The translations under genes and the position numbers were made by a program. The notes under the pieces were generated by a model. That model was not told the origin of the DNA and made no database searches. It saw nothing but the letters and a program-made list of their open reading frames with translations. From the IMG/VR virus record IMGVR_UViG_3300029913_000003, positions 1-64,000 of that record: a DNA stretch of 64,000 bases; one strand, written 5' to 3'. Positions 10,701-57,006 of this stretch are shown piece by piece; position 1 is the first letter of the stretch, and the number at the start of each line of letters is the position of its first letter. This DNA comes from a virus.

Positions 10701-10732
10701 AGTAGAATTAAATGAATAATTCTACTTTTTTA
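10701..10732. terminator. hairpin plus T/A-run intrinsic terminator
   Basis: agtagaatt / aattctact stem flanked by A-run and T-run. Confidence 0.55.
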
Positions 10733-10751
10733 ACTGTTATATTATGTTAAT

Positions 10752-11051: not shown

Positions 11052-11267
11052 TAAACTATTATACCATTTAATATCATAATATTTTTATATTTGTTAAAGT
11101 CAAGTTTTTGACGAATTATTTCACATTTTTTATTATATTCTTTAAGTGTTTTTGCGCCTTCGTCTACACACTGATAATGAGTTTGTACAAGAATATCAAA
11201 TTCTAATTGAGCATTTTTAGCATCTTCACGTTTTTCTTATACATAAAGTACTAGTTCTTCTGTAGTT

Positions 11268-11385
11268 CCGTCAACTTAAACATGCACAAATTTGTACAGG
11301 AAGTGACGTTTGGATGTTGTTTGATAACATTCCTTGTCCGAACACACTATTCTTTATAAATTTAAAGAAATCGTAGTCGCATTTA
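11268..11385 (-). ncRNA. putative omega-RNA (reRNA) scaffold region at TnpB 3' end
   Basis: ~118 nt at the 3' end of the TnpB ORF is repeated at 28386..28508; hairpin with conserved loop ATCAAAC kept by compensatory stem changes. Confidence 0.4.
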
Positions 11386-12728
11386 ATTTTAACTGGATTA
11401 CACAGTTTAAACATATAATTTTTCAGCCATGAAAAATCATTATTTTTGTTTGATTTTTTAATATGATTAACTGCACCATTTAAATCTGCATTCATTGTTT
11501 TATTTATTAGTTTGTCTGTAAACAATCCACGTTTAGAACGAACACCATTTAGTTCTTTATCTAACGGATTATTAACATCATCACTAACACAAGAACACTT
11601 GGAAGTGTAGGCTTCGTTAATTATATCTACTTGAATTCCAACTTCATTACTTTTATATTGAATGTAATCCAATAATTTAATGAAAGGAATCTGTATGAAA
11701 TTTTGTTTTACTTTATTATTTAATTTGCAGTCACCATTATATTTTAAGCTAGCTAAATTATATGATATGGTTAGGTTTGTTACTGAATTTAATTTCAAGA
11801 ACTCAACTACCCTTTTACTTACTTTATGAAACTGATCATAAAAATAACGATTCCTCTTTTCATAAAGAAATGTCTTATACTTCCTTAATTCTATTCCTCT
11901 TTGAGTCCACTTGGAAGCATATTTAATATTATTTTTACTTAAACTATATTCTATTACTTCGTTAGAAATTGATTCATTTAATTTAGCTATAAAACGATTG
12001 AATTTTGAGTTATAAGTCTTAAAGTGATTTCCATCTACAATAATTGATTTAGATTTTTTATCATCAATAAATATTGCAAGCAAATTATTGACTCCAACAT
12101 CAATCCCTGCTTCTTTTATGTTCAAATTACTATTTAAAATATCTTCAGTTAAATAGTTCAAGTGTAAATAAATTTCTTTGTTTGAGTAAACTATTTTAAG
12201 GCTTTGAATGTTTTTTGGTAGAAATTCGTGTTTGAAATCAATGTAAAACATTTTATTACTTAAGTTAATTCCAATTTTATCTTTTTTCTTGAAGGAAAAT
12301 GCAATTTGATCAACTAAAATTGAATATTTTGTTACCAAGAATAGCTTTTTAGCACTGGGTGTATTTGCCTTAACTTTTTGTTTGATTTTAGTGAAAAATG
12401 CTTTATAACTTACTTTAACTCTCTTAATCAAATCAGAAATATTATGAATTTTAAGACATTTAGATAAACGAATCAACTCAATCATTTTATCATAATTTTT
12501 ATATTTATCTTTAATAAACTTTACTTTGTCTTTTTCCAAACCGCCAGCAGTTTCAGCAAGAACTGCTCTCATGACTTTATAGTTAGAAAGTAAATTAAAA
12601 TCTTCTTGGTTTTCCTTCAATATTATAAGGTATAAGTTTTCGAAGTGACGATATTTGAAAATATAATCACTCATCATTTTTTTATATTTATCTTCTTTAA
12701 TGTGTATTATGAAGGTTCTATTATTCAT
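11271..12728 (-). CDS. tnpB: TnpB / Fanzor-like RuvC-fold RNA-guided nuclease (IS200/IS605 OrfB family)
   Basis: RuvC-I GIDVGVNN, RuvC-II INEAYTSKCSC, RuvC-III NADLNGAVNHI; 485 aa; no adjacent TnpA. Confidence 0.8.
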   Translation of the reverse strand: MNNRTFIIHIKEDKYKKMMSDYIFKYRHFENLYLIILKENQEDFNLLSNYKVMRAVLAETAGGLEKDKVKFIKDKYKNYDKMIELIRLSKCLKIHNISDLIKRVKVSYKAFFTKIKQKVKANTPSAKKLFLVTKYSILVDQIAFSFKKKDKIGINLSNKMFYIDFKHEFLPKNIQSLKIVYSNKEIYLHLNYLTEDILNSNLNIKEAGIDVGVNNLLAIFIDDKKSKSIIVDGNHFKTYNSKFNRFIAKLNESISNEVIEYSLSKNNIKYASKWTQRGIELRKYKTFLYEKRNRYFYDQFHKVSKRVVEFLKLNSVTNLTISYNLASLKYNGDCKLNNKVKQNFIQIPFIKLLDYIQYKSNEVGIQVDIINEAYTSKCSCVSDDVNNPLDKELNGVRSKRGLFTDKLINKTMNADLNGAVNHIKKSNKNNDFSWLKNYMFKLCNPVKIKCDYDFFKFIKNSVFGQGMLSNNIQTSLPVQICACLS

Positions 12729-16531: not shown

Positions 16532-17019
16532 ATAATATATTAAAGCTAATAACGATTTCTTTTGAAAAATATTATTATAATAATAGGAATGAATATCTTA
16601 AAATAGATTTTATTAAAAATTTTATGTATGATAATTGTGATAATATAAATCCTACTGATTTTATTAATAAAAAAATACCAATATATTTCGTTTATGATAT
16701 AAAAGATAATTTAGAATTAAAAGATATAAATATAAATGAATTTGATACTAATGAAATTTATGATAATAAAAAACAAATTTTAGAGTTAGTCGATCAAGAT
16801 AATGAAATAATTGAATGTATTGATTTTTCATTATTTTCTGATAGAAAATATATAATATATTCAAATTTAAATAATAATATAGTATTAAAAAATAAAATAT
16901 ATTCAAATGATTATAAATTATTTTTATTCTATGAGGATCATAACTTTATTGTAAAATTAATATATTCTCCTAATATTAGAAAATATAAATTACAGCAAAT
17001 TAAAAAGACGATAAAATGA
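16528..17019 (+). CDS. hypothetical protein (163 aa)
   Basis: ATGA overlap both sides. Confidence 0.5.
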   Translation: MNNILKLITISFEKYYYNNRNEYLKIDFIKNFMYDNCDNINPTDFINKKIPIYFVYDIKDNLELKDININEFDTNEIYDNKKQILELVDQDNEIIECIDFSLFSDRKYIIYSNLNNNIVLKNKIYSNDYKLFLFYEDHNFIVKLIYSPNIRKYKLQQIKKTIK

Positions 17020-17231
17020 AAATAGGAGATATAGTAATATATATAGGTAAAGATAATAAATTAATATATTTGAAAGAATATACTATTTATTATATAACTA
17101 CAACAGGATTTAATTATATATTTTTTATGATTGATGGAATTAATGCTATGAGCATGTTTCCTATTGAAGATTTTTGTACATTAAAAGAATATAGAAAATT
17201 AAAATTAAATAAATTATGCTCAACCAAGTAA
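17016..17231 (+). CDS. family A small protein (MKIGDIVIYIG ... LKEYRKLKLNKL)
   Basis: ORF track. Confidence 0.55.
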   Translation: MKIGDIVIYIGKDNKLIYLKEYTIYYITTTGFNYIFFMIDGINAMSMFPIEDFCTLKEYRKLKLNKLCSTK

Positions 17232-20084: not shown

Positions 20085-20387
20085 ATGAAAATAGGAGATA
20101 AAATATTTTGCTTAGATTATCAAATATATTCGGATTATAATGACGATATTAAATATAAAGGAGGATTATTAAAAAAAAATACAGAATATACAATCTATGG
20201 TATTTTTTTAGAATTTAGTGATTATTCTGAAAAATGGGTAGCAGAAACTCCTAAGATAGATGATAATAATTGTCAAATATATTTTGAATTAATTGAACTT
20301 GATGAGTTGATGTTTAATAAATGTAGATTTTTAACTAATAATGAATATAGAAAACTTAAGTTGCAGAAAATATATGAAAGTAGGTGA
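20085..20387 (+). CDS. family A small protein (MKIGDKIFCLD)
   Basis: ORF track. Confidence 0.55.
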   Translation: MKIGDKIFCLDYQIYSDYNDDIKYKGGLLKKNTEYTIYGIFLEFSDYSEKWVAETPKIDDNNCQIYFELIELDELMFNKCRFLTNNEYRKLKLQKIYESR

Positions 20388-20607
20388 TAAAGTAATTTTT
20401 CATAGTAATCATTATTATAGAGATTTAATAGAAGGTTACACATATACAATATCTGAAATTAATAGAATAGATGATGCTTATATTGAAATACCTAACGAAG
20501 ATTATATTATAGTATTATTAGAAAATACTTACGTTTTTTTATCAGATTTTATAACTATAAAAGAATATCGAAAACTTAAATTGAAAGAAATAGATGAAAG
20601 TAGGTGA
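20341..20607 (+). CDS. family A small protein (MKVGDKVIF)
   Basis: ORF track. Confidence 0.55.
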   Translation: MNIENLSCRKYMKVGDKVIFHSNHYYRDLIEGYTYTISEINRIDDAYIEIPNEDYIIVLLENTYVFLSDFITIKEYRKLKLKEIDESR

Positions 20608-20797
20608 TAAAGTTGTATGTATTGATAATTATAATTATACATATAAAATTTCATTAGATAAAATTTTAACAATAAAATTCAATAATAATTCTTATATGAA
20701 ATTTGATGAAATCGATTATAGATATTCAAGTAATAGATTTATAACTATAAAAGAATATAGAAAACGTAAATTAAAAAAATTAAAAAACTTATACTAA
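20594..20797 (+). CDS. family A small protein (MKVGDKVVCID)
   Basis: ORF track. Confidence 0.55.
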   Translation: MKVGDKVVCIDNYNYTYKISLDKILTIKFNNNSYMKFDEIDYRYSSNRFITIKEYRKRKLKKLKNLY

Positions 20798-20835: not shown

Positions 20836-21360
20836 ATGACAGAAAACAAACAAATAAATAAAAATGTAACTTTTTTTGGAGGTGCTATTAATGATAGAAC
20901 TACTTCTAAATATAGTGATAGTGTTTTAATTGGAAACTTTTTAGCTTCAAATGGGTATATAATTAAAAATGGAGGATATAGTGGATTAATGGAAGCTGTT
21001 TCTAAGGGAGCTAATGAAGCAGAAGGTACAATAATTGGTTATACTTGTTTATCTATTGGCTGTGCAAGAGGAAATGAATATTTAACAGAAACAGTTCCTT
21101 GTATTGACATCTATCAAAGATTGAGATTATTAATATCTGATAGTGAAATTTTTATAGTCCAAATAGGTGGAATTGGTACATTATCTGAAGTGTTTCTTCT
21201 ATTAGATGGCATAAGAAAATTAAAAGTAAAACCAAGAATATTTTTATTTGGACCTGAATGGAACAATTTATTTAATAATTTAACTGACTTTATGTCACCT
21301 GATCAAATAAAAATGATCACATTTTGTCAGGATTTTGAAGAATTTATAAAAGTTTTTTAA
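20836..21360 (+). CDS. LOG-family (TIGR00730-like) Rossmann-fold nucleotide-binding protein
   Basis: NGGYSGLMEAVSKGANEAEG and QIGGIGTLSEV resemble LOG GGYGGxMEA / PGGxGTxEE motifs. Confidence 0.5.
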   Translation: MTENKQINKNVTFFGGAINDRTTSKYSDSVLIGNFLASNGYIIKNGGYSGLMEAVSKGANEAEGTIIGYTCLSIGCARGNEYLTETVPCIDIYQRLRLLISDSEIFIVQIGGIGTLSEVFLLLDGIRKLKVKPRIFLFGPEWNNLFNNLTDFMSPDQIKMITFCQDFEEFIKVF

Positions 21361-22288: not shown

Positions 22289-22612
22289 ATGAAAACTACA
22301 ATAAAAAATGATATAAAAAAACTGGCGGAGAATCAATCAAATCTCAGAAATCAAAGAAAAACTATTCACATTAAAGGTGAAAGAGTAATGGAATCATGGA
22401 AAGCAGATTATTTACATTCTGAAAACAGACATGAATTAAGAATGTTATATGCAGCTTATGCAGTATTAAAAGGTAAAATATTTGAAGAAATTGAACCTAA
22501 AAATAAACCAGATAAATTGCCTTTATCATATTACAAAAATTCAATTGATAAATTAGTTGAAAAATATAATGTGATAGAAGAAATTAAAGATGAATCATTA
22601 GCATCTATTTAA
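22289..22612 (+). CDS. hypothetical protein (107 aa)
   Basis: ORF track. Confidence 0.45.
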   Translation: MKTTIKNDIKKLAENQSNLRNQRKTIHIKGERVMESWKADYLHSENRHELRMLYAAYAVLKGKIFEEIEPKNKPDKLPLSYYKNSIDKLVEKYNVIEEIKDESLASI

Positions 22613-22613
22613 T

Positions 22614-22940
22614 ATGATAATGAAAAACGTCAAAGATGATTTAGAAAAAGATAAATTATTTATATTAATTGACAACAAGCTTGATGTTACTTATGGAGGA
22701 GTTCAAGGTGCTCACGCTTCATGCCAATGGTTACTTGATCATAAATAGGTGCAAACCTGGAATAATCAATACTTAATTTTTCTATCTGCAGAACTTGAAA
22801 AATGGATATTTAAGTTAACTCTTAAAAATATAGATTTCACAGTGTTCTATGAACCTGATTTAGATAATAAACCAACTGCATTAGCAGTACATGGCAATGA
22901 TTCTCTATTTCGTAATTTAAAACTTTGGGGTGCTTTATAA
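22614..22940 (+). CDS. PTH2-like peptidyl-tRNA hydrolase with one in-frame TAG (codon 45)
   Basis: 22614..22745 and 22749..22940 are the same frame separated only by TAG 22746..22748; GGVQGAHASCQ ~ PTH2 GKGKxAAQCSHA; C-terminal FRNLKLWGAL ~ GHLKLL; human PTRH2 has Gln at the TAG position. Confidence 0.55.
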
Positions 22941-22947
22941 GCACCCC
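22927..22947 (+). promoter_or_regulatory. GC-rich stem-loop over the PTH2-like stop codon
   Basis: ggggtgc tttataa gcacccc; 7-bp G/C-rich stem with TAA in the loop, 15 nt before the tRNA. Confidence 0.4.
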
Positions 22948-22962
22948 GATTTTAATAAAAAT

Positions 22963-23033
22963 GCTCATTTAGTCCAGTGATAGGGCGGTAGCCTCTAAAA
23001 CTACCTACATCGGTTTGAATCCGATAGTGAGCA
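22963..23033 (+). tRNA. tRNA with anticodon CUA (amber-reading / suppressor-type), hand-folded
   Basis: Acceptor GCTCATT/AGTGAGC; D-stem GTCC/GGGC; anticodon stem GTAGC/ACTAC with loop CTCTAAA (U33, A37); T-arm ATCGG-TTTGAAT-CCGAT; discriminator A; 71 nt. Confidence 0.65.
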
Positions 23034-23070
23034 CAAATATATTTTTCATAAGGTATATTTATTTTTAAAA

Positions 23071-23099
23071 GGATTGAAATTCATTTCAATCCTTTTTTT
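23071..23099. terminator. intrinsic terminator after the tRNA
   Basis: ggattgaaa ttca tttcaatcc then ttttttt. Confidence 0.6.
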
Positions 23100-25707: not shown

Positions 25708-25914
25708 ATGATGGATAATTTAAATTATCTTAATTGTAATTATAAAATTCATATTCAATATCAAGTAAATGATTATATAAACATAAATGATGTTTTTATA
25801 TATCCATATTATGCAGCCAATGAATGTGATATTATATTAACAGATTTTGATTTTATTAAATATTATAGAAAACAAAAACTTAAAGAAATATGTTTAAACC
25901 AGGAGATAGAGTAG
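25708..25914 (+). CDS. family A member with decayed N-terminus (tail YYRKQKLKEICLNQEIE)
   Basis: Upstream in-frame remnant DYGVAVVFSRK lacks a start. Confidence 0.45.
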   Translation: MMDNLNYLNCNYKIHIQYQVNDYININDVFIYPYYAANECDIILTDFDFIKYYRKQKLKEICLNQEIE

Positions 25915-26132
25915 TTTGCATAAATGATGAAAATAATTGTGATCCAAATATAAATCTAATTAAATATAATATTTATATTGTAAAAGAGTTACATGAATAT
26001 ACCAATAATAGAATAATATTAGAATATCATGAAAATAGTTTATATTATAATACTAGATTTATATTATTAAAAGAATATAGAAAAGAAAAACTCAAACAAA
26101 TAGAATTATGTTCAAACCAGGAGATAAAGTAG
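25890..26132 (+). CDS. family A small protein (MFKPGDRVVCIND)
   Basis: Tandem array; junction ELCSNQEIK overlaps next start. Confidence 0.6.
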   Translation: MFKPGDRVVCINDENNCDPNINLIKYNIYIVKELHEYTNNRIILEYHENSLYYNTRFILLKEYRKEKLKQIELCSNQEIK

Positions 26133-26344
26133 TGTGTATTAATGATAAATATTTTTATAATGATAAATCTATAATAGAAATGATTAAATATAATATTTAT
26201 ACAATAAATAGAATTGCAGAAATTTCAGGTAGCAATACAGATAGAGTTGTATTATATGAATGTAAACGTATGTATTTTTCACACAGATTCATATCATTAA
26301 AAGAATATAGAAAACAAAAATTATTAGAAATATGTTCAAAGTAG
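26108..26344 (+). CDS. family A small protein
   Basis: MFKPGDKVVCIND ... RFISLKEYRKQKLLEI. Confidence 0.6.
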   Translation: MFKPGDKVVCINDKYFYNDKSIIEMIKYNIYTINRIAEISGSNTDRVVLYECKRMYFSHRFISLKEYRKQKLLEICSK

Positions 26345-26598
26345 GAGATAAAGTAGTTTGTATTGATGTTAAAAAATATAATAATAATAATTATAATGTA
26401 AACCTAATTAAATATAATATTTATACAATTAATATAGATTTTTCAGTTTTTGATAGATCAAGTTTTGGTAGATCAAGAGTTGAAATAAAAGAATGTTGTA
26501 ATGAGACATTTTATTCAGAGAGATTTATATTATTAAAAGAATATAGAAAACAAAAACTCAAACAAATAGAATTATGTTCAAACCAGGAGATAAAGTAG
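26332..26598 (+). CDS. family A small protein
   Basis: MFKVGDKVVCIDV ... RFILLKEYRKQKLKQI. Confidence 0.6.
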   Translation: MFKVGDKVVCIDVKKYNNNNYNVNLIKYNIYTINIDFSVFDRSSFGRSRVEIKECCNETFYSERFILLKEYRKQKLKQIELCSNQEIK

Positions 26599-26813
26599 TT
26601 TGCATTGATCAACAATATAGAAAAAAATACAATTTACCTAATACAATATTAGAAGTTACAGAATATAAAGATATAAGATATAAAAAATTATTTAGTGAAA
26701 ATTTTATTATTTGTTTCAAAGATATAAAATATGGATATAATTATAATTGTTTTATGCTATTAAAAGAATATCGTAAATTAAAATTATTAAAATTAAATAA
26801 AAATGATAAGTGA
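26574..26813 (+). CDS. family A small protein
   Basis: MFKPGDKVVCIDQ ... LLKEYRKLKLLKL. Confidence 0.6.
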   Translation: MFKPGDKVVCIDQQYRKKYNLPNTILEVTEYKDIRYKKLFSENFIICFKDIKYGYNYNCFMLLKEYRKLKLLKLNKNDK

Positions 26814-27084
26814 ATCAAGTCTTGTTAATTATATAGAAAATCTAAATCTTAGAAAAACCCATGAATGTTTTGATACTAACTATATAATTGATAATAATTA
26901 TATAATATGCATTGAATCATCTACTAATGTTTTTTTCATAGATAAAAAAATGAATTCGAACCTGTATATTTTCATAATTAATATTGAAAAATTAAAAGAT
27001 ATTTATTATAAAAAAACTGGTAAAAATATAGAAATTTTAATGAGAAAAGAAAAACTAAAAAAATTAGAAGAATGTTCAAGATAA
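26803..27084 (+). CDS. divergent array member (tail LMRKEKLKKLEECSR)
   Basis: Lacks GD start motif. Confidence 0.45.
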   Translation: MISESSLVNYIENLNLRKTHECFDTNYIIDNNYIICIESSTNVFFIDKKMNSNLYIFIINIEKLKDIYYKKTGKNIEILMRKEKLKKLEECSR

Positions 27085-27296
27085 GAGATAGAGTAGTTTG
27101 CATTGATAATTCTTATTTATATGATATAAATCTATTACAATTAAATAATATTTATATAATTGAAGATATTTTTAGTTATGATACAGAAAATAATTATATT
27201 GGTATGATATTAGAAAAATATAATTTTGAATTTAATTCTAATAGATTTATATCATTAAAAGAATATAGAAAACAAAAAATATTAAAATTATGTTAA
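27072..27296 (+). CDS. family A small protein (MFKIRDRVVCIDN)
   Basis: ORF track. Confidence 0.55.
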   Translation: MFKIRDRVVCIDNSYLYDINLLQLNNIYIIEDIFSYDTENNYIGMILEKYNFEFNSNRFISLKEYRKQKILKLC

Positions 27297-27535
27297 AACC
27301 AGGAGATAAAGTAATTTGTATTGATAATTCTTATTTAGATGATAATAGTATGAGAAAATTATTATTAAACCATATTTATATAATTAAACTATGCTTTACA
27401 TATCAATCAGATCATTTTAATTATATTATATTAGAAAATGATTTTGAATATCATGAAAATAGATTTATAACATTAAAAGAATATAGAAAACAAAAACTAT
27501 TAAAATTATGTTCAAACCAGGAGATAAGTTATTAG
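27290..27535 (+). CDS. family A small protein (MLKPGDKVICIDN)
   Basis: ORF track. Confidence 0.55.
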   Translation: MLKPGDKVICIDNSYLDDNSMRKLLLNHIYIIKLCFTYQSDHFNYIILENDFEYHENRFITLKEYRKQKLLKLCSNQEISY

Positions 27536-27756
27536 AAATATCAACTAACAAAATTTTCACATTCTGTGATTATATAAAAACTATATCATATTCATCAAAT
27601 TATAATGATATGATAGTGAATGATTATGATTATGAAAATGGTTTAATATCAATCAATGAAGATGCAGAAAATTATCATAGAATTAATAAATATTTATCTA
27701 TTAAAGAATGTAGAAAAGAAAAACTTAAAAAATTATATAAAGATTTTAATATTTAA
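27508..27756 (+). CDS. family A divergent member (MFKPGDKLLEIS)
   Basis: ORF track. Confidence 0.5.
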   Translation: MFKPGDKLLEISTNKIFTFCDYIKTISYSSNYNDMIVNDYDYENGLISINEDAENYHRINKYLSIKECRKEKLKKLYKDFNI

Positions 27757-28615: not shown

Positions 28616-28840
28616 ATGAAAATAGGAGATAAAGTTTTATTTACTGATTATTTTTATGAACATCATAAATATATAACAGATAATAGATATAATATTTTTA
28701 CAATCAAAGATTATTTTAGCGATAATTTCACCATTATTTCTTTATATGAACTTCCAATGTATTATTTTGAACCAAAAAATTTAATAACAGTATCAGAAAT
28801 TAGAAAAAAAAAATTAAAAAAATTAAAAATATATGAATAA
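28616..28840 (+). CDS. family A small protein (MKIGDKVLFTD ... VSEIRKKKLKKL)
   Basis: ORF track. Confidence 0.55.
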   Translation: MKIGDKVLFTDYFYEHHKYITDNRYNIFTIKDYFSDNFTIISLYELPMYYFEPKNLITVSEIRKKKLKKLKIYE

Positions 28841-29384
28841 ATTCGGAGTAATATTAGCAAGAGTTCAGCCAGTACATAATGGTCATATGGCATTAATTAA
28901 AAAGGCATATGATGAAAATGAAAATGTAGTATTTTTAGTTGGAAGTGCGGATAAAGTTGACTCAAGAAATCCAATTCCAGTTAGCATTAGAATTGAAATG
29001 CTAAAAGATGCATTAAAAGAAGCTAAGTTGATTGATAAATGTTTAATAATACCATTAGATGATTTAACTTCAGAAAGTGATAATTCTATTGAATGGGGTT
29101 TTTATCTTTATACTAAAATAGTAGATCAAATTAAAGATAGTTGTTTCACTATGTATTATTCAGATGGATTTGAAATCATCACTAAATGGTTTCCAGGATT
29201 TATGTTCAAAAATAATGTATCTCTGGTGCTATTAGCAAGAGGAACTGTTGAAGATGGTGTATCTGCTACCGAAGTTAGAAAAGCTATACTGAGCAATTCT
29301 CCTGAGCTAAAAAACATGGTTCCAAAATCAGTCTATAATAACAGAAATACGATTAAATCATTTATTGAATTAAATAAAGAATGA
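28833..29384 (+). CDS. nicotinamide-nucleotide adenylyltransferase, archaeal NadM-type cytidylyltransferase fold
   Basis: ARVQPVHNGH matches NMNAT GRFQPFHxGH; SATEVRKAI matches SxTxIR; 183 aa. Confidence 0.6.
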   Translation: MNKFGVILARVQPVHNGHMALIKKAYDENENVVFLVGSADKVDSRNPIPVSIRIEMLKDALKEAKLIDKCLIIPLDDLTSESDNSIEWGFYLYTKIVDQIKDSCFTMYYSDGFEIITKWFPGFMFKNNVSLVLLARGTVEDGVSATEVRKAILSNSPELKNMVPKSVYNNRNTIKSFIELNKE

Positions 29385-29665
29385 AAAATATTTATATAAC
29401 AAAAGATGAACTTGATAATTTCACAGAAGAACAATTAAATAGATTAGTATTTGTTTTTTATGATGGGCAAGGAGACACTAGCGTTATGATATGGAAAGAT
29501 TTTATTGAATTATCAAAAGAATGGGAGAAAGAACTTGGAATTGGATTTCCAAAAAATTCAGATAAATTTGATTTTTTATATAAAGATAGTGAACTAAATG
29601 GTAATATAAGTGAATTTCTATATTTTGATTTTAATAATGAATACAAAAGAATTTATTTTAAATAA
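29381..29665 (+). CDS. hypothetical protein
   Basis: ATGA overlap with NMNAT gene. Confidence 0.45.
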   Translation: MKNIYITKDELDNFTEEQLNRLVFVFYDGQGDTSVMIWKDFIELSKEWEKELGIGFPKNSDKFDFLYKDSELNGNISEFLYFDFNNEYKRIYFK

Positions 29666-29673
29666 TAATTATT

Positions 29674-29910
29674 ATGGCAAAAGATTATTTTGATAAAGAA
29701 TTTAAAAAAATGTGGATGGAAACGTGCATTGAATCTTGGAATGATCAATTTCTTGGAATATACTATACAAAACCATTTGAGGAAATTATTTATCTACATA
29801 ATAATATAGAAGAATTAGAAAGATATATTTCAGCATATGAAAAAAAATATGATACTAAACTAACATATAGATTAGATAACGGTTGCTCTTATATTTCACA
29901 ATTAAAATAG
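29674..29910 (+). CDS. hypothetical protein
   Basis: ORF track. Confidence 0.45.
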   Translation: MAKDYFDKEFKKMWMETCIESWNDQFLGIYYTKPFEEIIYLHNNIEELERYISAYEKKYDTKLTYRLDNGCSYISQLK

Positions 29911-29914
29911 AGAT

Positions 29915-30208
29915 ATGAAAGAGCACAATCACAATAATGATATTAATTATAATGCTGTTATTGAACAATGTGGTTTAATATTATATAAAAAGAAAGCAAT
30001 AGGTAATAAAGCAAGATTATTGTATATAATTCAAGCAAAATCTGGTAGATATGATCATCAAAGTATTATTATAATAAAAGAAATTAATAAAGATTTCATA
30101 AAAATAAATGATTCTAATGATATAGAATCAAAATTATATGAACCAGATAGATTACTTTATAACCAAATAAAAGAATATATAATAGAAGCAAATTATGAAT
30201 ATAGATAG
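29915..30208 (+). CDS. hypothetical protein
   Basis: ORF track. Confidence 0.45.
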   Translation: MKEHNHNNDINYNAVIEQCGLILYKKKAIGNKARLLYIIQAKSGRYDHQSIIIIKEINKDFIKINDSNDIESKLYEPDRLLYNQIKEYIIEANYEYR

Positions 30209-31217
30209 AAAATTAGCAACAATTCAGGTAATTAAAGACATATTACCAATTAAAGGAGCAGATAGAATAGAGGTTGCACGCATAAAAGGTTGGAAAGTAG
30301 TAGTTAAAAAAGACGAATTTAAAGTAGGTGACAAAGTTGTTTATTTTGAAATTGATTCACTATTACCTATTAGAGAAGAATTTGAATTTCTTAGAAATAG
30401 TTCATATAGAAAAACTGATGAACAAGAAGGTTTCCTCTTGAGAACGGTCAAATTACGCAAACAATTTTCATGTGGACTAATAATGTCATTAGATATTTTA
30501 AATGATACACCTTGTCATATATTTAAATTGACAGAAGGTGATGATGTATCTGATTATCTAAATGTTGTAAAATTTGAAGTTCCAATACCTGATGAACTTA
30601 AAGCTGATGTTGTTGGTCCTATTCCTTCATTCATATTGAAGACAAATGAAGAACGCGCACAAAATTTATCTGATGATTTCGATGAATGGAAAAAAGATAA
30701 TGTAATATTCTATGAAACAGAGAAACTTGATGGTCAATCTACCACTATGTATTTACATAATGGAGTATTTGGCGTGTGTGGTAGAAACTGGGAATTTAAA
30801 AGAAATCCAAATAATTTATTTTGGAAATTTGCAATTGAAAATAATATTGAAGAGAAATTAAGAATATATGGTAAAAATATTGCTGTTCAAGGTGAATTAA
30901 TTGGTTCAGGAATAGAAGGCAATAACTATAAATTAAGCCATAAAACAATAAAATATTTTAGAGTTTTTAATATAGATGAATATAAATTGGAAGATTATAA
31001 TACATTCGTTGATATTGTAACTAATGTATTAAATGCTGACACGGTTCCTTTAATTTGTAGTTATTATAAATTACCTGGCACTATTGATGAAATATTAAAA
31101 CATGTTGAAGGCAAATCTGTATTAACAAATTCATCAAAAAGGGAGGGAAGTGTATTTAAATCAATTGATTCATCAATAAGTTTTAAGGTCATTAACAATG
31201 AATATTTAATTAATTGA
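30195..31217 (+). CDS. ATP-dependent RNA ligase (Rnl5/DraRnl-like: N-terminal OB/tRNA-binding fold plus nucleotidyltransferase)
   Basis: N-terminus IKGADRIEVARIKGWKVVV..VGDKVVYFE resembles OB tRNA-binding fold; ligase motif I ETEKLDGQS (KxDG); 340 aa. Confidence 0.5.
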   Translation: MNIDRKLATIQVIKDILPIKGADRIEVARIKGWKVVVKKDEFKVGDKVVYFEIDSLLPIREEFEFLRNSSYRKTDEQEGFLLRTVKLRKQFSCGLIMSLDILNDTPCHIFKLTEGDDVSDYLNVVKFEVPIPDELKADVVGPIPSFILKTNEERAQNLSDDFDEWKKDNVIFYETEKLDGQSTTMYLHNGVFGVCGRNWEFKRNPNNLFWKFAIENNIEEKLRIYGKNIAVQGELIGSGIEGNNYKLSHKTIKYFRVFNIDEYKLEDYNTFVDIVTNVLNADTVPLICSYYKLPGTIDEILKHVEGKSVLTNSSKREGSVFKSIDSSISFKVINNEYLIN

Positions 31218-39743: not shown

Positions 39744-40445
39744 ATGAAAATTTTAAACATAGGGGATATTCACGGATTTGATTCATGGAAAAAATTTGTA
39801 GATGATATTTCTCAATATGATAAAATAATATTTGTAGGAGATTATGTTGATGAATATCATCTAAGTAATATTACAATATTAAATAATTTATTAGATATCA
39901 TTGAATTTAAGAAAAAATATCCAGATAAAGTTATTTTATTATTAGGTAATCATGATTATCAATATGCTATACGACCACCTAGTATGAATATTTTAGGACA
40001 TTGCTCTGGATATAGAGCAGAAATGCATTTTGATTTATATGAAATATTTCATAATAATTTAAAATTATTTCAATTATCTTATCAATACGAAAATTATATT
40101 TGGACCCATGCAGGAATTCATCGTGGATGGTATGACCATTTTTTAATAGAATTTAAAAAAGTTTCTGATTTTGAAGGTACTATATCAGATAAATTAAATT
40201 TAGCATTTGAATTTGAGTTAGAATGCTTACTTGATTGCGGATATGTACGTGGTGGATATAATAAAGTTAGCGGTCCATTGTGGGCTGATAAAACTGAATC
40301 ATGGACTAAACCATTAAAGAATTGTCATCAAATTTGCGGTCATACCCACACAGATAAAATAGTTCATCATGAAATACCAAATATAAATTCATCTGTTACA
40401 TATATTGACTCCTTGCCAGAATATTGTTACATTTTAAATATATAA
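39744..40445 (+). CDS. calcineurin-like metallophosphoesterase (PPP / ApaH / lambda-phosphatase-like)
   Basis: GDIHG ... FVGDYVDEY ... LLGNHDYQY ... GHTHTD. Confidence 0.6.
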   Translation: MKILNIGDIHGFDSWKKFVDDISQYDKIIFVGDYVDEYHLSNITILNNLLDIIEFKKKYPDKVILLLGNHDYQYAIRPPSMNILGHCSGYRAEMHFDLYEIFHNNLKLFQLSYQYENYIWTHAGIHRGWYDHFLIEFKKVSDFEGTISDKLNLAFEFELECLLDCGYVRGGYNKVSGPLWADKTESWTKPLKNCHQICGHTHTDKIVHHEIPNINSSVTYIDSLPEYCYILNI

Positions 40446-40931: not shown

Positions 40932-41206
40932 TTAAAAATTTTATATATAGTTTATGATTGTGAGTTATTAATTTAACTATCAATTAATTAAGTTAGAGAA
41001 GCTTAACGATTTATTATTTACGTAAAAAATGATACTGATTGTGCTATAGTTTAATAGTGCTAAATGGATAAGGAATAACCAATTCCCCCATTTTAGGTGA
41101 CTTTTTTTAATTCAGTAAGACGATTAAGTTGTTTTTTTCAAAGTAAAAAAACATTGGTTACATCTATTCATTGTATTCTCAGGTGGAGATAGCTAGGTGG
41201 CGGAAA

Positions 41207-41288
41207 GGTTAGACGTTTGGGTAAAAGTCCCATTAGTGAGGTAGCTCAAAGATTATTTCTTATATAGGTTCGAGTCCTATCCTAACTA
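41207..41288 (+). tRNA. tRNA-like gene with canonical T-arm; body does not fold as a standard 76-nt cloverleaf
   Basis: T-arm ATAGG-TTCGAGT-CCTAT; acceptor GGTTAGA/CCTAACT (6/7); D-arm TGGG-TAAAAGT-CCCA; anticodon arm unresolved. Confidence 0.35.
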
Positions 41289-41298
41289 CATTTAAAAA

Positions 41299-41359
41299 TG
41301 AAAAGACGGATCTAAGCCAAAAAAGCATTAGTATGTGGGTTCAACTCCCACATTTTCAC
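41299..41359 (+). other. tRNA-like fragment (T-arm plus acceptor-like ends; too short for a full tRNA)
   Basis: GTGGG-TTCAACT-CCCAC; TGAAAAG/ATTTTCA ends; 61 nt. Confidence 0.25.
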
Positions 41360-41375
41360 TAAATAATATTAATTA

Positions 41376-41468
41376 AAGAAAGTAAGTCAAAAGGTCAGAC
41401 TAGTAAAGCCAAAAAAGCGTTTATATAAAAAATATTCATTTATGTTGGTTCGAATCCAACCTTTCTTT
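41376..41468 (+). tRNA. tRNA-like gene with canonical T-arm and D-arm plus ~20 extra nt (possible intron)
   Basis: Acceptor AAGAAAG/CTTTCTT perfect 7 bp; D-arm AGTC-AAAAGGTCA-GACT; T-arm GTTGG-TTCGAAT-CCAAC; anticodon region not canonical. Confidence 0.4.
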
Positions 41469-44739: not shown

Positions 44740-44958
44740 ATGAAAATAGGAGAATTAATAGATTTAAACTCAGAAGCTCATGAAATTATAAATTCCAATT
44801 TAAGTTGGAATGTTAAATATGATTTGATTTTTTCTGATGATATGTCATCAAAAGTTAAATTAGATTATTATGATCCAGACACATCATATGAAGAAGATGT
44901 ACTAGCTTGGATTGGAGCCTTTGATGAATATTTAAAATATAATAACATATTAAAATGA
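44740..44958 (+). CDS. hypothetical acidic small protein
   Basis: ORF track. Confidence 0.4.
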   Translation: MKIGELIDLNSEAHEIINSNLSWNVKYDLIFSDDMSSKVKLDYYDPDTSYEEDVLAWIGAFDEYLKYNNILK

Positions 44959-45575
44959 AAAATATCGCACTTTTTTTTGGTAGCTATAATCCTTGTCATA
45001 ATACACATATTAAGGTAGCTGAATGTGTATCTAAGTTAGATTATATTGATGAAGTGCAATTAGTAGTTTCGCCACAAAATCCATTTAAGCATGATTTAGC
45101 TGATTATAATGATAGATTTAATATGTGTGAGTTATCTGTAGAAAATTATGCTAATATCACAGTAAATCATATCGAACGTTATTTACCTTTACCATCATTT
45201 ACCATTAATGCATTAAATGAGTTAAGTAAATTAAATCCTGATACTAAATATTATATGATAATGGGGTTAGATATTTTTTTAGATATAGATAAATGGAAAA
45301 GTTATAAGGTTATATGTGAAAAATACCCTTTTTTAGTTTTACCAAGAGATTTTGATATAGAAACAAATGAAAAATGTTTTATTTATAAGAAAACTGAATT
45401 ACTCAATAGTAATGTAATTATAAATAAAGATACTGTTTTTTTGAAAGATTTTAAAATATCATCATTATCTTCAACAAAAATAAGAAATAGTGTTGCAAAT
45501 TCAGAAGATATTAGTATCTTTGTACCAGAAACAGTAAATAAATATATTCATCAACATAATCTATACAAAATATGA
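44955..45575 (+). CDS. nadD: nicotinate/nicotinamide mononucleotide adenylyltransferase (bacterial NadD-type)
   Basis: GSYNPCHNTH (HxGH-type) and ISSTKIRN (SxT.IR) motifs; 206 aa. Confidence 0.55.
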   Translation: MKNIALFFGSYNPCHNTHIKVAECVSKLDYIDEVQLVVSPQNPFKHDLADYNDRFNMCELSVENYANITVNHIERYLPLPSFTINALNELSKLNPDTKYYMIMGLDIFLDIDKWKSYKVICEKYPFLVLPRDFDIETNEKCFIYKKTELLNSNVIINKDTVFLKDFKISSLSSTKIRNSVANSEDISIFVPETVNKYIHQHNLYKI

Positions 45576-47313: not shown

Positions 47314-47511
47314 ATGAATGCTACTGAAATTGTTACAAATAGAGAAGATTTTAAAGATAAATTAAAAAAACTTTTCATTCCATCATGTATAAAGGATTTT
47401 GGTGATATAGAACCATTTAACATAGGATACGCAATGAAAAACTGGACATTTTTTTATTATTCTGTTGAAAATATTGGAATACATACAGTAGAATTAATTG
47501 AAAATAAATAA
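47314..47511 (+). CDS. hypothetical small protein
   Basis: ORF track. Confidence 0.4.
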   Translation: MNATEIVTNREDFKDKLKKLFIPSCIKDFGDIEPFNIGYAMKNWTFFYYSVENIGIHTVELIENK

Positions 47512-47920
47512 TATGAAAAAACAATTTATATCACCTTTTAATGAGGAGTCTTTTGAAAAAGAATTTATTCAACATGATATTAGTAAATATGATGTTTTGT
47601 ATCATGTAACAACTGAAGATAGAATAGAAAATATTAAAAATGATGGACTGAAAATTAACCAGCCTCAGTATAAATCACTTGTTGAGACAGGGATGTTGTT
47701 CTTTTCTTATCCTATACTACATAATACTCAAGATTTATTTAGATATTATGATAAATCGTATATTGTAGCACTTGATGTACAAAAATTGATTAAAGATGGT
47801 ATTATTTTTTATGATGATAATTTCTCAAATCAAGATCAATCATCAAATAGAAATCATTTATGCTGTGAAGTAGATATACCAGTTAAATATATTAAAAAAA
47901 TTATAGAACCATTTGAATAA
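47498..47920 (+). CDS. hypothetical protein
   Basis: ORF track. Confidence 0.4.
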   Translation: MKINNMKKQFISPFNEESFEKEFIQHDISKYDVLYHVTTEDRIENIKNDGLKINQPQYKSLVETGMLFFSYPILHNTQDLFRYYDKSYIVALDVQKLIKDGIIFYDDNFSNQDQSSNRNHLCCEVDIPVKYIKKIIEPFE

Positions 47921-48120: not shown

Positions 48121-48330
48121 ATCTGGCGATATATTAATTTGTACTCAGCATAATTCAAGTTTTGGGTTCACTAACACTAACTTAAAACTTTTTACTCCAT
48201 TGCATGTTAAACATTTAAAATATGGAGATACATTTGAATTTTATGAATATCCAGGTAAAACTTATATATCTGAATATCACACTTTCATAAAATTATCTGA
48301 TTATAGAAAACTTAAATTAAATAAATTAAA
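48121..48330 (+). pseudogene. family A-like copy with ATG>ATA start-codon loss
   Basis: IIKSGDILICTQHN...LSDYRKLKLNKLNDKTW*; aligned start of intact neighbour is ATGATAAAACCTGGTGAT. Confidence 0.4.
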
Positions 48331-48566
48331 TGATAAAACCTGGTGATATATTAATTTGTACTCATAATAAAGAAGGTTCAAGTAAAATTGAACTTTTCAA
48401 ACCTTTACATGTTAAACTAACAACAAATGATGATCATTTTTTTGAATTTGAAGAATTTGAAAATGTTGCATACACCAGTAATTATCATATTTTTATAAAA
48501 TTATCTGAATATAGAAAACTTAAATTAAATGAATTAAATGAAATCTCAAATAAAGAAATTTATTGA
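48330..48566 (+). CDS. family A-like small protein (MIKPGDILICTHN ... LSEYRKLKLNEL)
   Basis: Intact copy of the unit found decayed twice upstream. Confidence 0.55.
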   Translation: MIKPGDILICTHNKEGSSKIELFKPLHVKLTTNDDHFFEFEEFENVAYTSNYHIFIKLSEYRKLKLNELNEISNKEIY

Positions 48567-48831
48567 TTATATATTCGAAAAAATACATAAGCAAAAAATA
48601 GAATTAATTCTTAAAAAATATAAAATTGATACTGATTCATATGAGAAAGGTAGGCAATTTGGATATGAGAAAGGGTTTATTGACGGAACAAAATCGAATC
48701 CACAAAAACATTACTCTGTACCAAAAAAAGATTATGATGACTTAATTATATATTTAGCATCTCATAATCTTGTACTTATATATAACGTAGATTCACCAGA
48801 TGGAACTGGATTAATGGTTAGAAAAATATAA
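48538..48831 (+). CDS. hypothetical protein
   Basis: ORF track. Confidence 0.45.
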   Translation: MKSQIKKFIDYIFEKIHKQKIELILKKYKIDTDSYEKGRQFGYEKGFIDGTKSNPQKHYSVPKKDYDDLIIYLASHNLVLIYNVDSPDGTGLMVRKI

Positions 48832-54717: not shown

Positions 54718-55656
54718 ATGAAAAAAGATAAAAAATTAGTCATATCTTGTGGATTACCAGCAGCAGGTAAATCAAGCATCATTGAAAAATATGTTGATTA
54801 TAAATGTACATTACTATCAAGAGATATTGAAGGAGATACATTAAGTTCTCTTAATAAAAAACTTGAACAATTAATGTTAGATGGCGTGGATATTGTATTA
54901 GATGGAACATATTCAACTAAATTATCTAGGGCTGATGTTATTGAATTAGCAAAAAAATATAATTATTATATATTATGTATTCATTTTACTACAAAAATTG
55001 AAGATTGTATGTTCAATCAGGTAACAAGAATGATAAGAAAATATGGTAAATTATTCACAGAATTAAGTGAATATTCTAACTCTAATGATCCACATATGTT
55101 TCCTGTTGCTGCACTTTATAAAATTAATAAAAATTTTGAAGCACCTGAATTATCAGAAGGTATTGATGATATAGAAAAAATAGATTTTAAACGTTATTCA
55201 TCAGAATATAAAAATAAAGCAATTTTATTTGATTATGATGGTACATTGAGATTAACTAAAAGTGGTGAACATTATCCAACTGATATTAGTGATATTGAAA
55301 TAATTCCAGGTAGAACAGAAAAACTTTTAGAATTACAAAGTCAAGGTTATATATTACTTGGAGTTTCAAATCAAAGTGGAATAGCAAAAGGATTATTATC
55401 TAATGATACAGCAATAGCTTGTTTTGAAAAAACAAATGAAATGCTAGGAGTTAATATTGATTATAAATATTGTGGGCATTCAGTTCCTCCAATAACTTGC
55501 TATTGTAGAAAACCAGGAGTTGGACTAGGAATAGAATTTATTGAAAAATATAAACTTGATCCATCTCAATGCATAATGGTTGGAGATTTAACAAGTGATA
55601 AAACATTTGCTAAAAGATGTGGATTCAAATATATTGATGCTGCTAATTTCTTCTAA
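54718..55656 (+). CDS. polynucleotide kinase / 3'-phosphatase (T4 Pnkp-like: P-loop kinase plus HAD phosphatase)
   Basis: Walker A SCGLPAAGKSS; HAD motifs LFDYDGTL, GVSNQSG, VGDLTSD; domain order as in T4 Pnkp. Confidence 0.6.
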   Translation: MKKDKKLVISCGLPAAGKSSIIEKYVDYKCTLLSRDIEGDTLSSLNKKLEQLMLDGVDIVLDGTYSTKLSRADVIELAKKYNYYILCIHFTTKIEDCMFNQVTRMIRKYGKLFTELSEYSNSNDPHMFPVAALYKINKNFEAPELSEGIDDIEKIDFKRYSSEYKNKAILFDYDGTLRLTKSGEHYPTDISDIEIIPGRTEKLLELQSQGYILLGVSNQSGIAKGLLSNDTAIACFEKTNEMLGVNIDYKYCGHSVPPITCYCRKPGVGLGIEFIEKYKLDPSQCIMVGDLTSDKTFAKRCGFKYIDAANFF

Positions 55657-56283: not shown

Positions 56284-57006
56284 ATGCCAAAAATTTATGA
56301 AGTGGGCGGATGTGTACGTGACCGTATCTTAGGAGTTGATTGTAAAGATATAGACTTTACTTTTGTATTGGATGACAAGAATCAATCAGTTGAATCTGGA
56401 TTCATGTCAATGGACTTGTGGTTACGTAAAAATGGCTACACCGTATATAATTCAACTCCAAGATGTTTCACAATCAAAGCAAAGTTTCCAAAAGGACATA
56501 AGCATGAAGGGTTAACTGCAGATTTTGTAATGGCTAGAAAGGAAATTGGTTATTACGAAGGAACAAGACGTCCAATTTTAGAACTTGGTACACTTGAAGA
56601 TGATTTAATCAGACGTGATTTCACATTGAATGCTATGGCACTTGATGAAGATGAAAATTTGATTGATTTATTTGATGGAGTAAAAGATCTTAAAATGGGT
56701 ATTCTTAGAACGCCAAGACCTTGCCAACTTACATTTGATGAGGATCCATTACGGATTTTACGTTGTGAGCGTTTTTGTATTACAAAAGGTTTCAGAATGA
56801 CTGATGATATTGAAGTTGCTATTAAAAATTATGATTATGAATCAAAAATGCAAGTAGTTTCAAATGAAAGAATTCAAGATGAACTTACCAAGTGTTTTAA
56901 ATTTGATACATTAAAAACAATTTTGATGTTGAATGAATTTCCTGAATTGAGAGATTATGTATTTAATCATACTAAGATGTGGTTGAAACCATCATTTCAA
57001 AAATAA
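56284..57006 (+). CDS. tRNA nucleotidyltransferase (CCA-adding / poly(A) polymerase) head-domain protein, Pol-beta superfamily
   Basis: N-terminal YEVGGCVRDRILGVDCKDIDFTF matches class-II GGxVRD...DxD; only 240 aa. Confidence 0.55.
   Translation: MPKIYEVGGCVRDRILGVDCKDIDFTFVLDDKNQSVESGFMSMDLWLRKNGYTVYNSTPRCFTIKAKFPKGHKHEGLTADFVMARKEIGYYEGTRRPILELGTLEDDLIRRDFTLNAMALDEDENLIDLFDGVKDLKMGILRTPRPCQLTFDEDPLRILRCERFCITKGFRMTDDIEVAIKNYDYESKMQVVSNERIQDELTKCFKFDTLKTILMLNEFPELRDYVFNHTKMWLKPSFQK

Follow-up and report, generated by a model that had tools for sequence, protein, structure and literature searches.

The first 64,000 nucleotides (nt) of IMG/VR virus record IMGVR_UViG_3300029913_000003 (this whole stretch is referred to below as the window) carry genes acting on RNA ends and tRNAs, which an initial annotation had gathered into a single RNA/tRNA repair and maintenance set composed of an RNA ligase, a kinase/phosphatase, a CCA-type nucleotidyltransferase, a PTH2-like gene and several tRNAs. 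A computational follow-up of these genes suggests that two functionally separate sets are probably present: a set for healing and sealing RNA ends and for restoring tRNA 3' ends (set A), and an amber-suppression module (module B) formed by the PTH2-like gene, which has an in-frame TAG, and a tRNA with a CUA anticodon. The latter two had been counted among the break-repair genes, to which they do not appear to belong. The amber-gated PTH2-like/tRNA(CUA) pairing is the part of the window most worth pursuing, and we could not find any report of it in the searchable literature.

An amber-interrupted PTH2-like gene beside a suppressor tRNA

The gene for the PTH2-fold protein (22614..22943, +) contains an in-frame TAG at 22746-22748 (codon 45), the sole genuine in-frame TAG of the 64-kb window, and is followed by an amber-suppressor tRNA with anticodon CUA (22963..23034, +; called by ARAGORN and scoring 55.2 bits in Rfam). 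This tRNA starts 19 nt past the stop codon of the PTH2-like gene, possesses a canonical 7-nt loop (CUCUAAA) with U33, and has no encoded CCA. It is flanked on the same strand by two terminator-like hairpins, one of which spans the PTH2-like stop codon (22925-22949) while the other comes after the tRNA (23067-23096); a scan for such hairpins yielded 3 sites versus 0.1 expected. Close relatives of the PTH2-like gene (92-95% nucleotide identity) keep the TAG at the same codon, and their synonymous and non-synonymous codon changes downstream of it stand at 7:2 and 8:5, with no frameshift and no further stop.

The Pth2 alpha/beta fold was predicted for the protein by an AlphaFold2 model built on a 74-sequence alignment, which was used because the model from a 6-sequence alignment was too poor (predicted local distance difference test score of 63.8), and profile-versus-PDB comparison matched the family to Pth2 chains at 7.5e-5 to 1e-3. 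The fold and the tRNA previously placed at 22614..23033 were recovered, but membership of PF01981 was not: the protein had no match to PF01981 at an E-value of 0.01, and none to any Pfam or NCBIfam family. Besides lacking this match, the family differs from archaeal and eukaryotic Pth2 (PF01981) in being restricted to phages and in its presumed active site. The catalytic residues of archaeal Pth2, which we take to be a Lys and an Asp, are replaced in hidden Markov model alignments of the PTH2-like family, the Lys position by Tyr or Arg/Gly and the Asp position by an invariant Glu.

The family profile retrieved 80 IMG/VR loci, and 65 distinct sequences (64 from IMG/VR and the window's own) were compared; linkage was counted in the 61 distinct members with at least 1.5 kb of downstream sequence. 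A same-strand tRNA(CUA) lies within 1.5 kb downstream of the PTH2-like gene in 47 of these 61 loci (within 50 nt in 17) and up to 400 nt upstream in three further loci, giving a total of 50/61 with an adjoining suppressor. In 43 of 50 loci the downstream tRNA nearest to the gene is the CUA one, which is the sole tRNA in 18 loci; one locus has a tRNA(UCA) instead, 40 nt downstream. As a control, 41 loci of the PNK-HAD family (homologues of the kinase/phosphatase described below) contained 27 tRNAs, among which a single CUA was found, and that one was beside a PTH2-like gene. CCA is encoded in 16 of 58 distinct suppressor tRNAs adjoining PTH2-like genes. The family is large (1174 profile matches, with no Pfam domain in any of the 120 matches listed), and among 185,579 species genomes it was detected in only three contigs of metagenome-assembled genomes (MAGs), two of which have an adjoining tRNA(CUA).

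The in-frame TAG recurs in this family at restricted positions. About 40 of the 65 sequences carry one, mostly at codons 2-14: in approximately 32 it comes 1-13 codons past a leader ATG, most often within 2-5 codons (e.g., MK*INPKLRVVTRRDL, where the asterisk is the TAG). In 27 of these, the stretch from the TAG to the conserved first strand offers no canonical start; for the remaining early-TAG members, the only candidate start is inside or adjoining the conserved core. Where a Shine-Dalgarno sequence is present, it is located 4-6 nt ahead of the leader ATG. Internal TAGs occur in eight members, six at one alignment site (38-44% identity) and two at another. Twenty sequences lack an in-frame TAG altogether. 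The same layout was found in LR756500, whose homologue starts with ATG-AAG-TAG and has a tRNA(CUA) 0.8 kb downstream.

These data point to a phage-specific PTH2-fold gene with an in-frame UAG, followed by a tRNA(CUA), whose full-length protein would be made only while the suppressor is active. As the full-length protein needs an active suppressor, the PTH2-like protein could be regarded as a suppression-gated accessory of read-through, and its synthesis, gated by an early or fixed-site UAG, would report suppressor activity. It might tune the pool of charged suppressor or clear peptidyl- or aminoacyl-tRNA by-products of read-through; alternatively, it may feed back on the suppressor itself. While fold, gene-tRNA linkage, and recurrence and placement of the TAG are observed, a hydrolase activity and the regulatory logic are inferred. 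We tentatively propose, at somewhat less than even confidence, that this phage-restricted family of more than 1,000 members of ~100 amino acids (aa) is a dedicated amber-suppressor partner, that is, a UAG-gated, autoregulated sensor or effector of read-through or code switching.

A resemblance may be seen to the autoregulation of prfB (RF2), whose in-frame UGA is bypassed through +1 frameshifting, with negative feedback. In both cases a product acting in stop-codon decoding would carry an early in-frame copy of that very stop, so that its synthesis reports decoding activity; the difference is that bypass here would be read-through by a neighbouring suppressor tRNA. The arrangement is also similar to the code-change module (suppressor tRNA, aminoacyl-tRNA synthetase and release factor) of Borges et al. 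(bioRxiv 10.1101/2021.08.26.457843) in that a suppressor tRNA stands beside a gene for a translation-related protein. However, the partner has a PTH2 fold rather than being a synthetase or release factor and is itself amber-gated, and no sign of a general reassignment of TAG was seen in the window. No release factor or aminoacyl-tRNA synthetase appeared among the scanned window open reading frames (ORFs), a scan that left some small ORFs outside, and no recoded genes were found. The control of read-through and of its side effects in phages with suppressor tRNAs is an open question in the literature on stop-codon recoding, and a conserved amber-gated protein partner, if true, would be a concrete and testable component of such control that is absent from current 'code-change module' models.

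Several observations weigh against this proposal. No tRNA(CUA) was detected in 11 of the 61 PTH2-like loci. The presumed catalytic residues are not conserved, so peptidyl-tRNA hydrolase activity of the PTH2-like protein is not assured. The codon following the TAG in the window gene is GTG, which makes a split two-piece product conceivable for this member. Finally, the ORF coverage of some PTH2-like loci rises if TAG is treated as a sense codon, in a noisy test that cannot classify single phages, and TAG may be a genome-wide sense codon in some of these phages, making some in-frame TAGs unremarkable.

This last point leads to the better of two alternative explanations, namely that the in-frame TAGs merely reflect genome-wide reassignment of TAG (code 15) and that the proximity of the tRNA reflects shared tRNA regions, as Lak phages and many gut phages do reassign TAG and encode suppressor tRNAs. 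We consider it unlikely as a general account. In the window, TAG is the working stop of 20 genes, with no in-frame TAG outside the PTH2-like gene, and there are seven distinct loci in which no other TAG-containing ORF exists among 5-11 neighbours. The positions of the TAGs are strongly non-random, either just past the initiation codon or at a single common internal site, and the predominance of CUA as the first or only downstream tRNA is not what mere sharing of tRNA regions would give. In the model of Borges et al., genes of the code change are encoded in the standard code, and for this reason a TAG within a gene adjoining the suppressor is informative. The other alternative, a pseudogene created by nonsense mutation, finds some basis in the fact that gene callers split the window gene into pieces of 42-44 aa and 63 aa, but it is largely refuted, and very improbable, because the TAG is kept in relatives differing at 5-8% of nucleotides with mostly synonymous change downstream, and the same alignment site is a TAG in three far more distant lineages. 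Annotation of PTH2-like genes would improve from their recognition, since gene callers currently truncate or split them.

Some neighbours of PTH2-like genes may also be mentioned. A 107-aa ORF lies directly upstream of the window gene (22289..22612, +); clustering of neighbours placed members of its family (conserved ELR(I/M)(M/L)YAAY motif) next to PTH2-like genes at 10 further loci, and no Pfam or PHROG match was found for it. In LR756500 (L005), a tRNA-shaped sequence (12340-12530) with acceptor GGTTGTA/TACAATC, good D and T arms and a >100-nt insertion is located directly upstream of the suppressor tRNA and was not called by ARAGORN. Between the kinase/phosphatase homologue and the PTH2-like gene of the same sequence (9034-11361) there are genes for NADAR, APS-kinase-like and YqeY/GatB-tail-like proteins, and the YqeY/GatB-tail-like tRNA-binding domain could relate to charging of the suppressor. 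A tmRNA gene (1100-1427) is present 1 kb upstream of the PTH2-like gene in L172 (ONIZ01000001.1), a 410-kb scaffold of a Firmicutes MAG bin; the scaffold could be a huge phage placed in the wrong bin.

Predicted enzymes for healing and sealing RNA ends and for tRNA 3' ends

The best-defined member of set A is a full-length, 340-aa RNA ligase (30195..31217, +) of the Rnl5 (DraRnl/NgrRnl) type, identified by Pfam, PDB, NCBIfam and motifs. It consists of an N-terminal OB domain (PHA02142 PF21189, residues 7-98, 1e-35) and an adenylyltransferase domain (RNA_ligase PF09414, residues 172-332, 9e-19), matches NgrRnl of Naegleria (PDB 5cot) collinearly from end to end (NgrRnl residues 5-334, E-value of 1e-62), and passes the curated equivalog TIGR02306 RNA_lig_DRB0094 (174 bits versus a cut-off of 151.15). 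The motif I lysine is K177 (KLDG), and motifs III (QGEL232), IV (REGSVFK316) and V (SFKV329) align to those of NgrRnl. The OB fold and KxDG motif noticed initially thus correspond to real domains with an Rnl5 signature, and the profile searches did not assign the protein to DNA ligases or mRNA-capping enzymes. On these sequence features the product is an Rnl5 ligase with predicted sealing activity. Such ligases are frequent in phages (339 records), and an Rnl5 ligase and a short CCA enzyme are both encoded by cultured Microbacterium phage Cece and Arthrobacter phages Mimi, Racecar and Talia1610.

The second member is a 312-aa polynucleotide 5'-kinase/3'-phosphatase (54718..55656, +; Pfam AAA_33 and PNK3P, PF08645), with a P-loop kinase at the N-terminus (G12LPAAGKS, R35-D36) and an HAD-IIIA phosphatase at the C-terminus (D172YDGT). 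The catalytic positions (P-loop G12-S19, D36, D172xD174xT176, S220, K265 and D290/D294) are invariant across homologues (alignment A5). An architecture like that of T4 Pnkp had been proposed for this gene, and the domain order and motifs do agree with it, but the T4 type of phosphatase does not: T4-type HAD_PNKP (PF25109) has no match in the protein, in which PF08645 PNK3P and HAD-SF-IIIA/GmhB-type models match instead, while a genuine PF25109 protein of another huge phage scored 1.8e-49 with the same library. The phosphatase is accordingly classed, from its profile matches, as a predicted PNKP/GmhB HAD-IIIA enzyme and not as T4 HAD_PNKP. A gene for an MgtC-family membrane protein (53381-54010, +) is found two genes upstream of the kinase/phosphatase, an arrangement kept in close relatives.

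The PNK-HAD family comprises 41 IMG/VR loci, most on contigs of 100-570 kb. RlaP is encoded within 6 kb of PNK-HAD in 10 of 40 loci and a 252-aa PF09414 RNA ligase in 7 of 40, and a Pnkp paralogue of T4 type and an exonuclease resembling RNase T are also found near distant loci; in LR756500 the homologue sits among tRNA genes. The presence of RlaP and RNA ligases near distant homologues supports an RNA-repair role for the PNK-HAD family, in which the partners change.

The third member, of 240 aa (56284..57006, +), is a class II CCA-type tRNA nucleotidyltransferase reduced to head and neck (Pfam PolyA_pol PF01743, 8e-20). Motifs A-E could be recognized (GGCVRD8, DID22, RRDFTLNA110, DGVKDL131, EDPLRILR153 and ERIQDEL195), residues 37-247 of the Thermotoga maritima CCA enzyme (3h37) align to the protein, and phrog_24229 (245 positions) is covered completely (3e-68). 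The protein stops at residue 240, so the body and tail domains of CCA enzymes (~390-440 aa in total) are absent, and all full-length CCA equivalogs of NCBIfam scored far under their cut-offs. The short form is nevertheless an established phage family (478 phage records, e.g., the 245-aa gp032 of Cellulophaga phage phi17:2). The CCA-enzyme head initially recognized here was therefore correct, and by its profile matches the protein is a member of the PolyA_pol/CCA family with predicted CCA-, CC- or A-adding activity. The competing identity as a MenT/AbiEii-type toxin was ruled out, as the Pfam matches are to PolyA_pol and PolyA_pol_RNAbd only and the PHROG matches are tRNA nucleotidyltransferases.

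Further candidates for the handling of RNA ends are scattered over the window. A cyclic-phosphate-processing receiver (cRec) domain protein (57249..57587, -; PF20274 4e-18, 66.3 bits versus a cut-off of 27; phrog_1479) is encoded 240 nt from the CCA-type gene, and cRec is described by Iyer et al. (PMC7824862) as a predicted 2',3'-cyclic phosphodiesterase. A protein encoded at 61890..63539 (-) fuses PPK2 (Pfam 6e-73; TIGR03707 272 bits) to a C-terminal 'Swiss-army-knife' (SAK) HAD domain (HAD_SAK_2 4e-24; PF18143, residues 397-533, 85.9 bits versus a cut-off of 27.5), with no family assigned to its N-terminal ~165 aa; a polyphosphate-driven PPK2 kinase joined to a SAK-HAD phosphatase would resemble a second kinase/phosphatase. 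A calcineurin-like metallophosphoesterase (39744..40445, +; Pfam Metallophos 7e-12), encoded ~750 nt upstream of a cluster of tRNA-like elements, weakly matches the multidomain 'RNA ligase' profile phrog_8238 in its phosphoesterase portion and is a possible end-healing phosphoesterase.

From these domain identities and catalytic motifs a scheme may be drawn, of which the substrates, the sequence of events and the link to defence are inferred. Metal-independent host ribonucleases or processing would leave RNA ends with 2',3'-cyclic or 3'-phosphate and 5'-OH, which would be opened and dephosphorylated (candidates being cRec, the HAD of the kinase/phosphatase, the SAK-type HAD and the calcineurin-like esterase), after which the P-loop kinase would phosphorylate the 5'-OH. 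What follows might be either the sealing of nicks in duplex RNA by the Rnl5 ligase or the rebuilding of tRNA 3' ends by the short CCA-type enzyme; this enzyme probably also matures the tRNAs of the phage itself, none of which has an encoded CCA.

In jumbo phages, Iyer, Anantharaman, Krishnan, Burroughs and Aravind (2021, PMC7824862) interpret the same inventory as an adaptation for RNA repair and ribosome rescue; it comprises tRNAs, ATP-dependent RNA ligases, PNK-HAD, SAK-HAD, cRec, KptA, CCA enzyme, PTH2 and nicotinamide adenine dinucleotide (NAD) salvage. The role suggested by the initial annotation agrees with that interpretation, and its enzyme assignments were right. The window resembles this complement also in its HIGH nucleotidyltransferases of NAD salvage and in the calcineurin-like phosphoesterase, an occasional substitute according to the same authors. 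Differences exist as well: the ligase of the window is Rnl5 while passages of PMC7824862 name Rnl1, Rnl2 and RtcB, SAK-HAD tends there to stand alone but is fused to PPK2 here, and the PTH2-fold protein of the window comes from a divergent family that has no Pfam match and is linked to a suppressor tRNA. The repair kit itself is thus of an already catalogued kind, an ordinary further member whose gene linkages are not conserved past close relatives, and its value is modest: the Rnl5 ligase, the PNKP-type kinase/phosphatase, the PPK2-SAK-HAD fusion and the head-and-neck-only CCA enzyme are candidates for biochemistry.

The idea of a counter-defence kit against tRNA-targeting nucleases, also put forward initially, stands in its general form, which is accepted for such phages, but its specific form, resealing of cut anticodon loops, lacks support for this type of ligase. 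The set shares with T4 Pnkp and Rnl1, which act on PrrC-cut tRNA-Lys, the kinase-then-phosphatase order and a presumed logic of healing followed by sealing, and T4-family genes are present; it differs in its PNK3P/HAD-IIIA phosphatase and in a nick-sealing Rnl5 in place of the anticodon-loop specialist Rnl1, and the T4-type Pnkp paralogue found in other huge phages is not in the window. Rnl5 enzymes seal 3'-OH/5'-PO4 nicks in duplexes with ribonucleotides on the 3' side, and their physiological role is uncharted (Schmier et al. 2017, PMC5397189). Sealing of anticodon-loop breaks is not a known Rnl5 activity, and as Rnl5 seals duplex nicks and its sole in vivo phenotype, that of DraRnl, is in recovery from DNA damage (PMC5397189), anticodon-loop resealing is unsupported. 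The T4-unlike phosphatase points in the same direction. More generally, the ligase, Pnkp and CCA genes are not clustered but spread over ~40 kb, the Pnkp-CCA-cRec cluster is retained solely in relatives of 86-87% identity and gone in one relative at 83%, and in the 41-locus linkage test no CCA, cRec or Rnl5 gene was found within 6 kb of Pnkp in distant loci.

Two other explanations of set A were considered. The first is that it serves as housekeeping for phage translation, maturing tRNAs and tRNA-like RNAs without CCA and recycling tRNAs, with no anti-nuclease role. Neither the suppressor tRNA nor the three tRNA-like elements described below has an encoded CCA, only a minority of the suppressor tRNAs of the family do, and the phage invests heavily in tRNA-related genes. 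As a complete account this is doubtful, since it leaves the 5'-kinase, the nick-sealing ligase, cRec and SAK-HAD unexplained, all of which have broken ends, not primary transcripts, as their targets; the housekeeping and repair readings are, moreover, compatible and not mutually exclusive. The second, which we judge to be slightly less probable still, is that the Rnl5 ligase and the PNKP-like enzyme serve transactions of DNA or RNA-DNA hybrids instead of tRNA repair, for example joining nicks at which the 3' side is ribonucleotide, as with primer remnants or embedded ribonucleotides, and mending DNA breaks with 3'-phosphate/5'-OH ends. A minimum of two ribonucleotides at the 3'-OH side is enough for DraRnl to seal a nick, and knockout of DraRnl delays reassembly of the genome after irradiation; the authors leave it undecided whether Rnl5 and Rnl2 repair DNA or RNA (PMC5397189). 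Both domains of the kinase/phosphatase have mammalian PNKP, a DNA-repair enzyme, as their best PDB match, which weighs against a role in tRNA repair, and the short CCA-type gene of phi17:2 is two genes from an ATP-dependent DNA ligase and adjoins a PARP-like protein. Such a role is opposed by the RNA-repair markers (RlaP and PF09414 RNA ligases) near distant PNK-HAD homologues, by the clustering of Pnkp with the tRNA nucleotidyltransferase and cRec in the lineage of the window, and by its position among tRNA genes in LR756500.

The ligase closes a tightly packed gene block, which opens with a gene for an NMNAT-like HIGH-motif nucleotidyltransferase (28833..29384, +; H15NGH, S144ATEVR; Pfam CTP_transf_like 6e-9; phrog_395, phrog_3462) whose product reaches 4e-19 with NMNAT families of NCBIfam, still under their cut-offs. 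Between the two genes there are three small ORFs of 94, 78 and 97 aa (29381..30208, +) with overlapping or abutting starts and stops, for which no Pfam or PHROG family was above threshold. Compared with DraRnl and NgrRnl, to which it is akin by collinear full-length homology, N-terminal OB domain, motifs I and III-V and the TIGR02306 score, the window ligase is a phage copy that adjoins the NMNAT-like gene, with the kinase/phosphatase 23.5 kb off; a polynucleotide kinase is encoded nearby in the case of DraRnl, too.

Other genes for nucleotide or NAD metabolism include a NadD-type nicotinate/nicotinamide mononucleotide adenylyltransferase of NAD salvage (44955..45575, +; TIGR00482 138 bits versus 112; Pfam CTP_transf_like 5e-15) and a SLOG/LOG-family (TIGR00730-like) nucleotide-processing protein (20836..21360, +; Pfam Lysine_decarbox 8e-14, LDcluster4 1e-13), encoded 1.25 kb upstream of the PTH2-like gene. 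A candidate in the window for Tpt1/2'-phosphotransferase, a kind of gene that the initial annotation had suggested looking for, is a 140-aa protein (47498..47920, +) with a sub-threshold match to the Tpt1/KptA NAD lobe (Pfam PTS_2-RNA 1.3e-3, 19.3 bits versus a cut-off of 26). This identity was rejected, as the match covers profile positions 98-166 only, without the N-terminal lobe, and there is no PDB, NCBIfam or PHROG match; its place in the repair set is doubtful.

tRNA-like RNAs of the window

Three tRNA-like elements had been noted at 41207..41468, and they were found at 41191-41468, two of them scoring as tRNA in Rfam and the third lacking a D arm. Element 1 (98 nt, 41191..41288, +) scores 28.8 bits versus a gathering score of 29, with 36.8-40.6 bits in relatives; it has acceptor, D and T arms, an extra arm of ~28 nt and a loop (UAAAAGU) without U33. 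ARAGORN calls of this element are inconsistent, and alignment A3 contains compensatory changes. Element 2 (~61 nt, 41299..41359, +), detected in the mitochondrial mode of ARAGORN only, is the one without D arm, and has a T arm GUGGG/CCCAC and a loop CAAAAAA; it is kept in locus L125. Element 3 (93 nt, 41376..41468, +; Rfam tRNA 41.4 bits) has canonical acceptor, D and T arms and a 27-nt insertion in the anticodon region with a conserved AGCCAAAAAAGC, and its homologue in L125, also at 41.4 bits, shows compensatory changes in the acceptor and T arm.

All three have non-canonical, A-rich loops without U33 and no encoded CCA, and loop size varies among relatives. Relatives whose flanking metallophosphoesterase is 82-83% identical keep the elements, with compensatory changes in the T, acceptor and 'anticodon' stems. 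A ~45-nt leader (41146-41190, +) before element 1 is near-invariant although the metallophosphoesterase protein of the relatives is only 82-83% identical, which suggests that the functional RNA reaches 5' beyond the tRNA-like part. The retention of the elements, the compensatory stem changes and the conserved 5' leader together indicate that the three are real structured RNAs, in which canonical features of elongator tRNAs are missing (no U33, insertions of 27-28 nt, one without D arm). The T4 tRNA cluster contains small stable RNAs, to which the three elements may be analogous; it is speculative that their A-rich loops base-pair to U-rich anticodon loops. When IMG/VR was scanned at the DNA level with the AGCCAAAAAAGC...GGTTCRA pattern that the elements share, only chance matches in coding DNA were returned, and no Rfam ribozyme (e.g., HDV-like) or other family was found in the tRNA-like cluster or beside the suppressor tRNA.

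Source phage and further genes

The source of the window is an AT-rich huge phage of at least 346 kb with T4-family genes, from environmental metagenomes. The window has a G+C content of 21% and short, tightly packed ORFs, and its tailed-phage markers include the T4-family small proteins Phage_30_3 and T4_Y16D as well as PHROG matches. Identical copies of its genes exist on many metagenome contigs (JGI, ENA and Logan; size bins up to 0.2-1 Mb), and a 346,561-bp contig holds a C-terminal piece of the PTH2-like gene. At the protein level the nearest relatives come from metagenomic 'huge phages' (460-735 kb), and no cultured phage with DNA-level similarity to the window was found. An origin from a giant virus, prompted by the 21% GC, the ankyrin and leucine-rich repeat (LRR) paralogues and the Naegleria-like ligase, was ruled out by the T4-family proteins, the PHROG and phage matches and the huge-phage relatives.

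The window uses the standard genetic code, with TAA, TGA and TAG ending 96, 41 and 20 of its 157 ORFs, respectively. Window-wide recoding of TAG or TGA was ruled out by these 20 TAG-ended genes, by the short read-through extensions for all three stops and by the presence of just one genuine in-frame TAG.

Other observations concern genes outside the two sets. A vault-like protein of 817 aa (2531-4984, +), found here in a phage, matches the Major Vault Protein shoulder, the Vault_3 repeat and Band_7/SPFH, and vault-like homologues of ~830 aa adjoin the PTH2-like gene on its upstream side in two other loci (L086 and L094). A TnpB-like protein of 485 aa (11271-12728, -) consists of OrfB_IS605 and a Cas12f1-like TNB domain. 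Two groups of paralogues were also recognized. The first is large: proteins of 60-95 aa with the form 'MFKVGD(R/K)VVCID...RFISLKEYRK(Q/E)KL' are encoded at 5406-8318 (-) and at 17016-17231, 20085-20797, 25708-27756, 28616-28840 and 48330-48831 (+), many of them in overlapping tandem arrays and many with a TAG stop. Members of a second family (51342-52751 and 58058-61871, -) start with 'MKYIKTFE' and end with '(A/T)NKFN(I/L)', and some of them contain ankyrin or LRR-like repeats.

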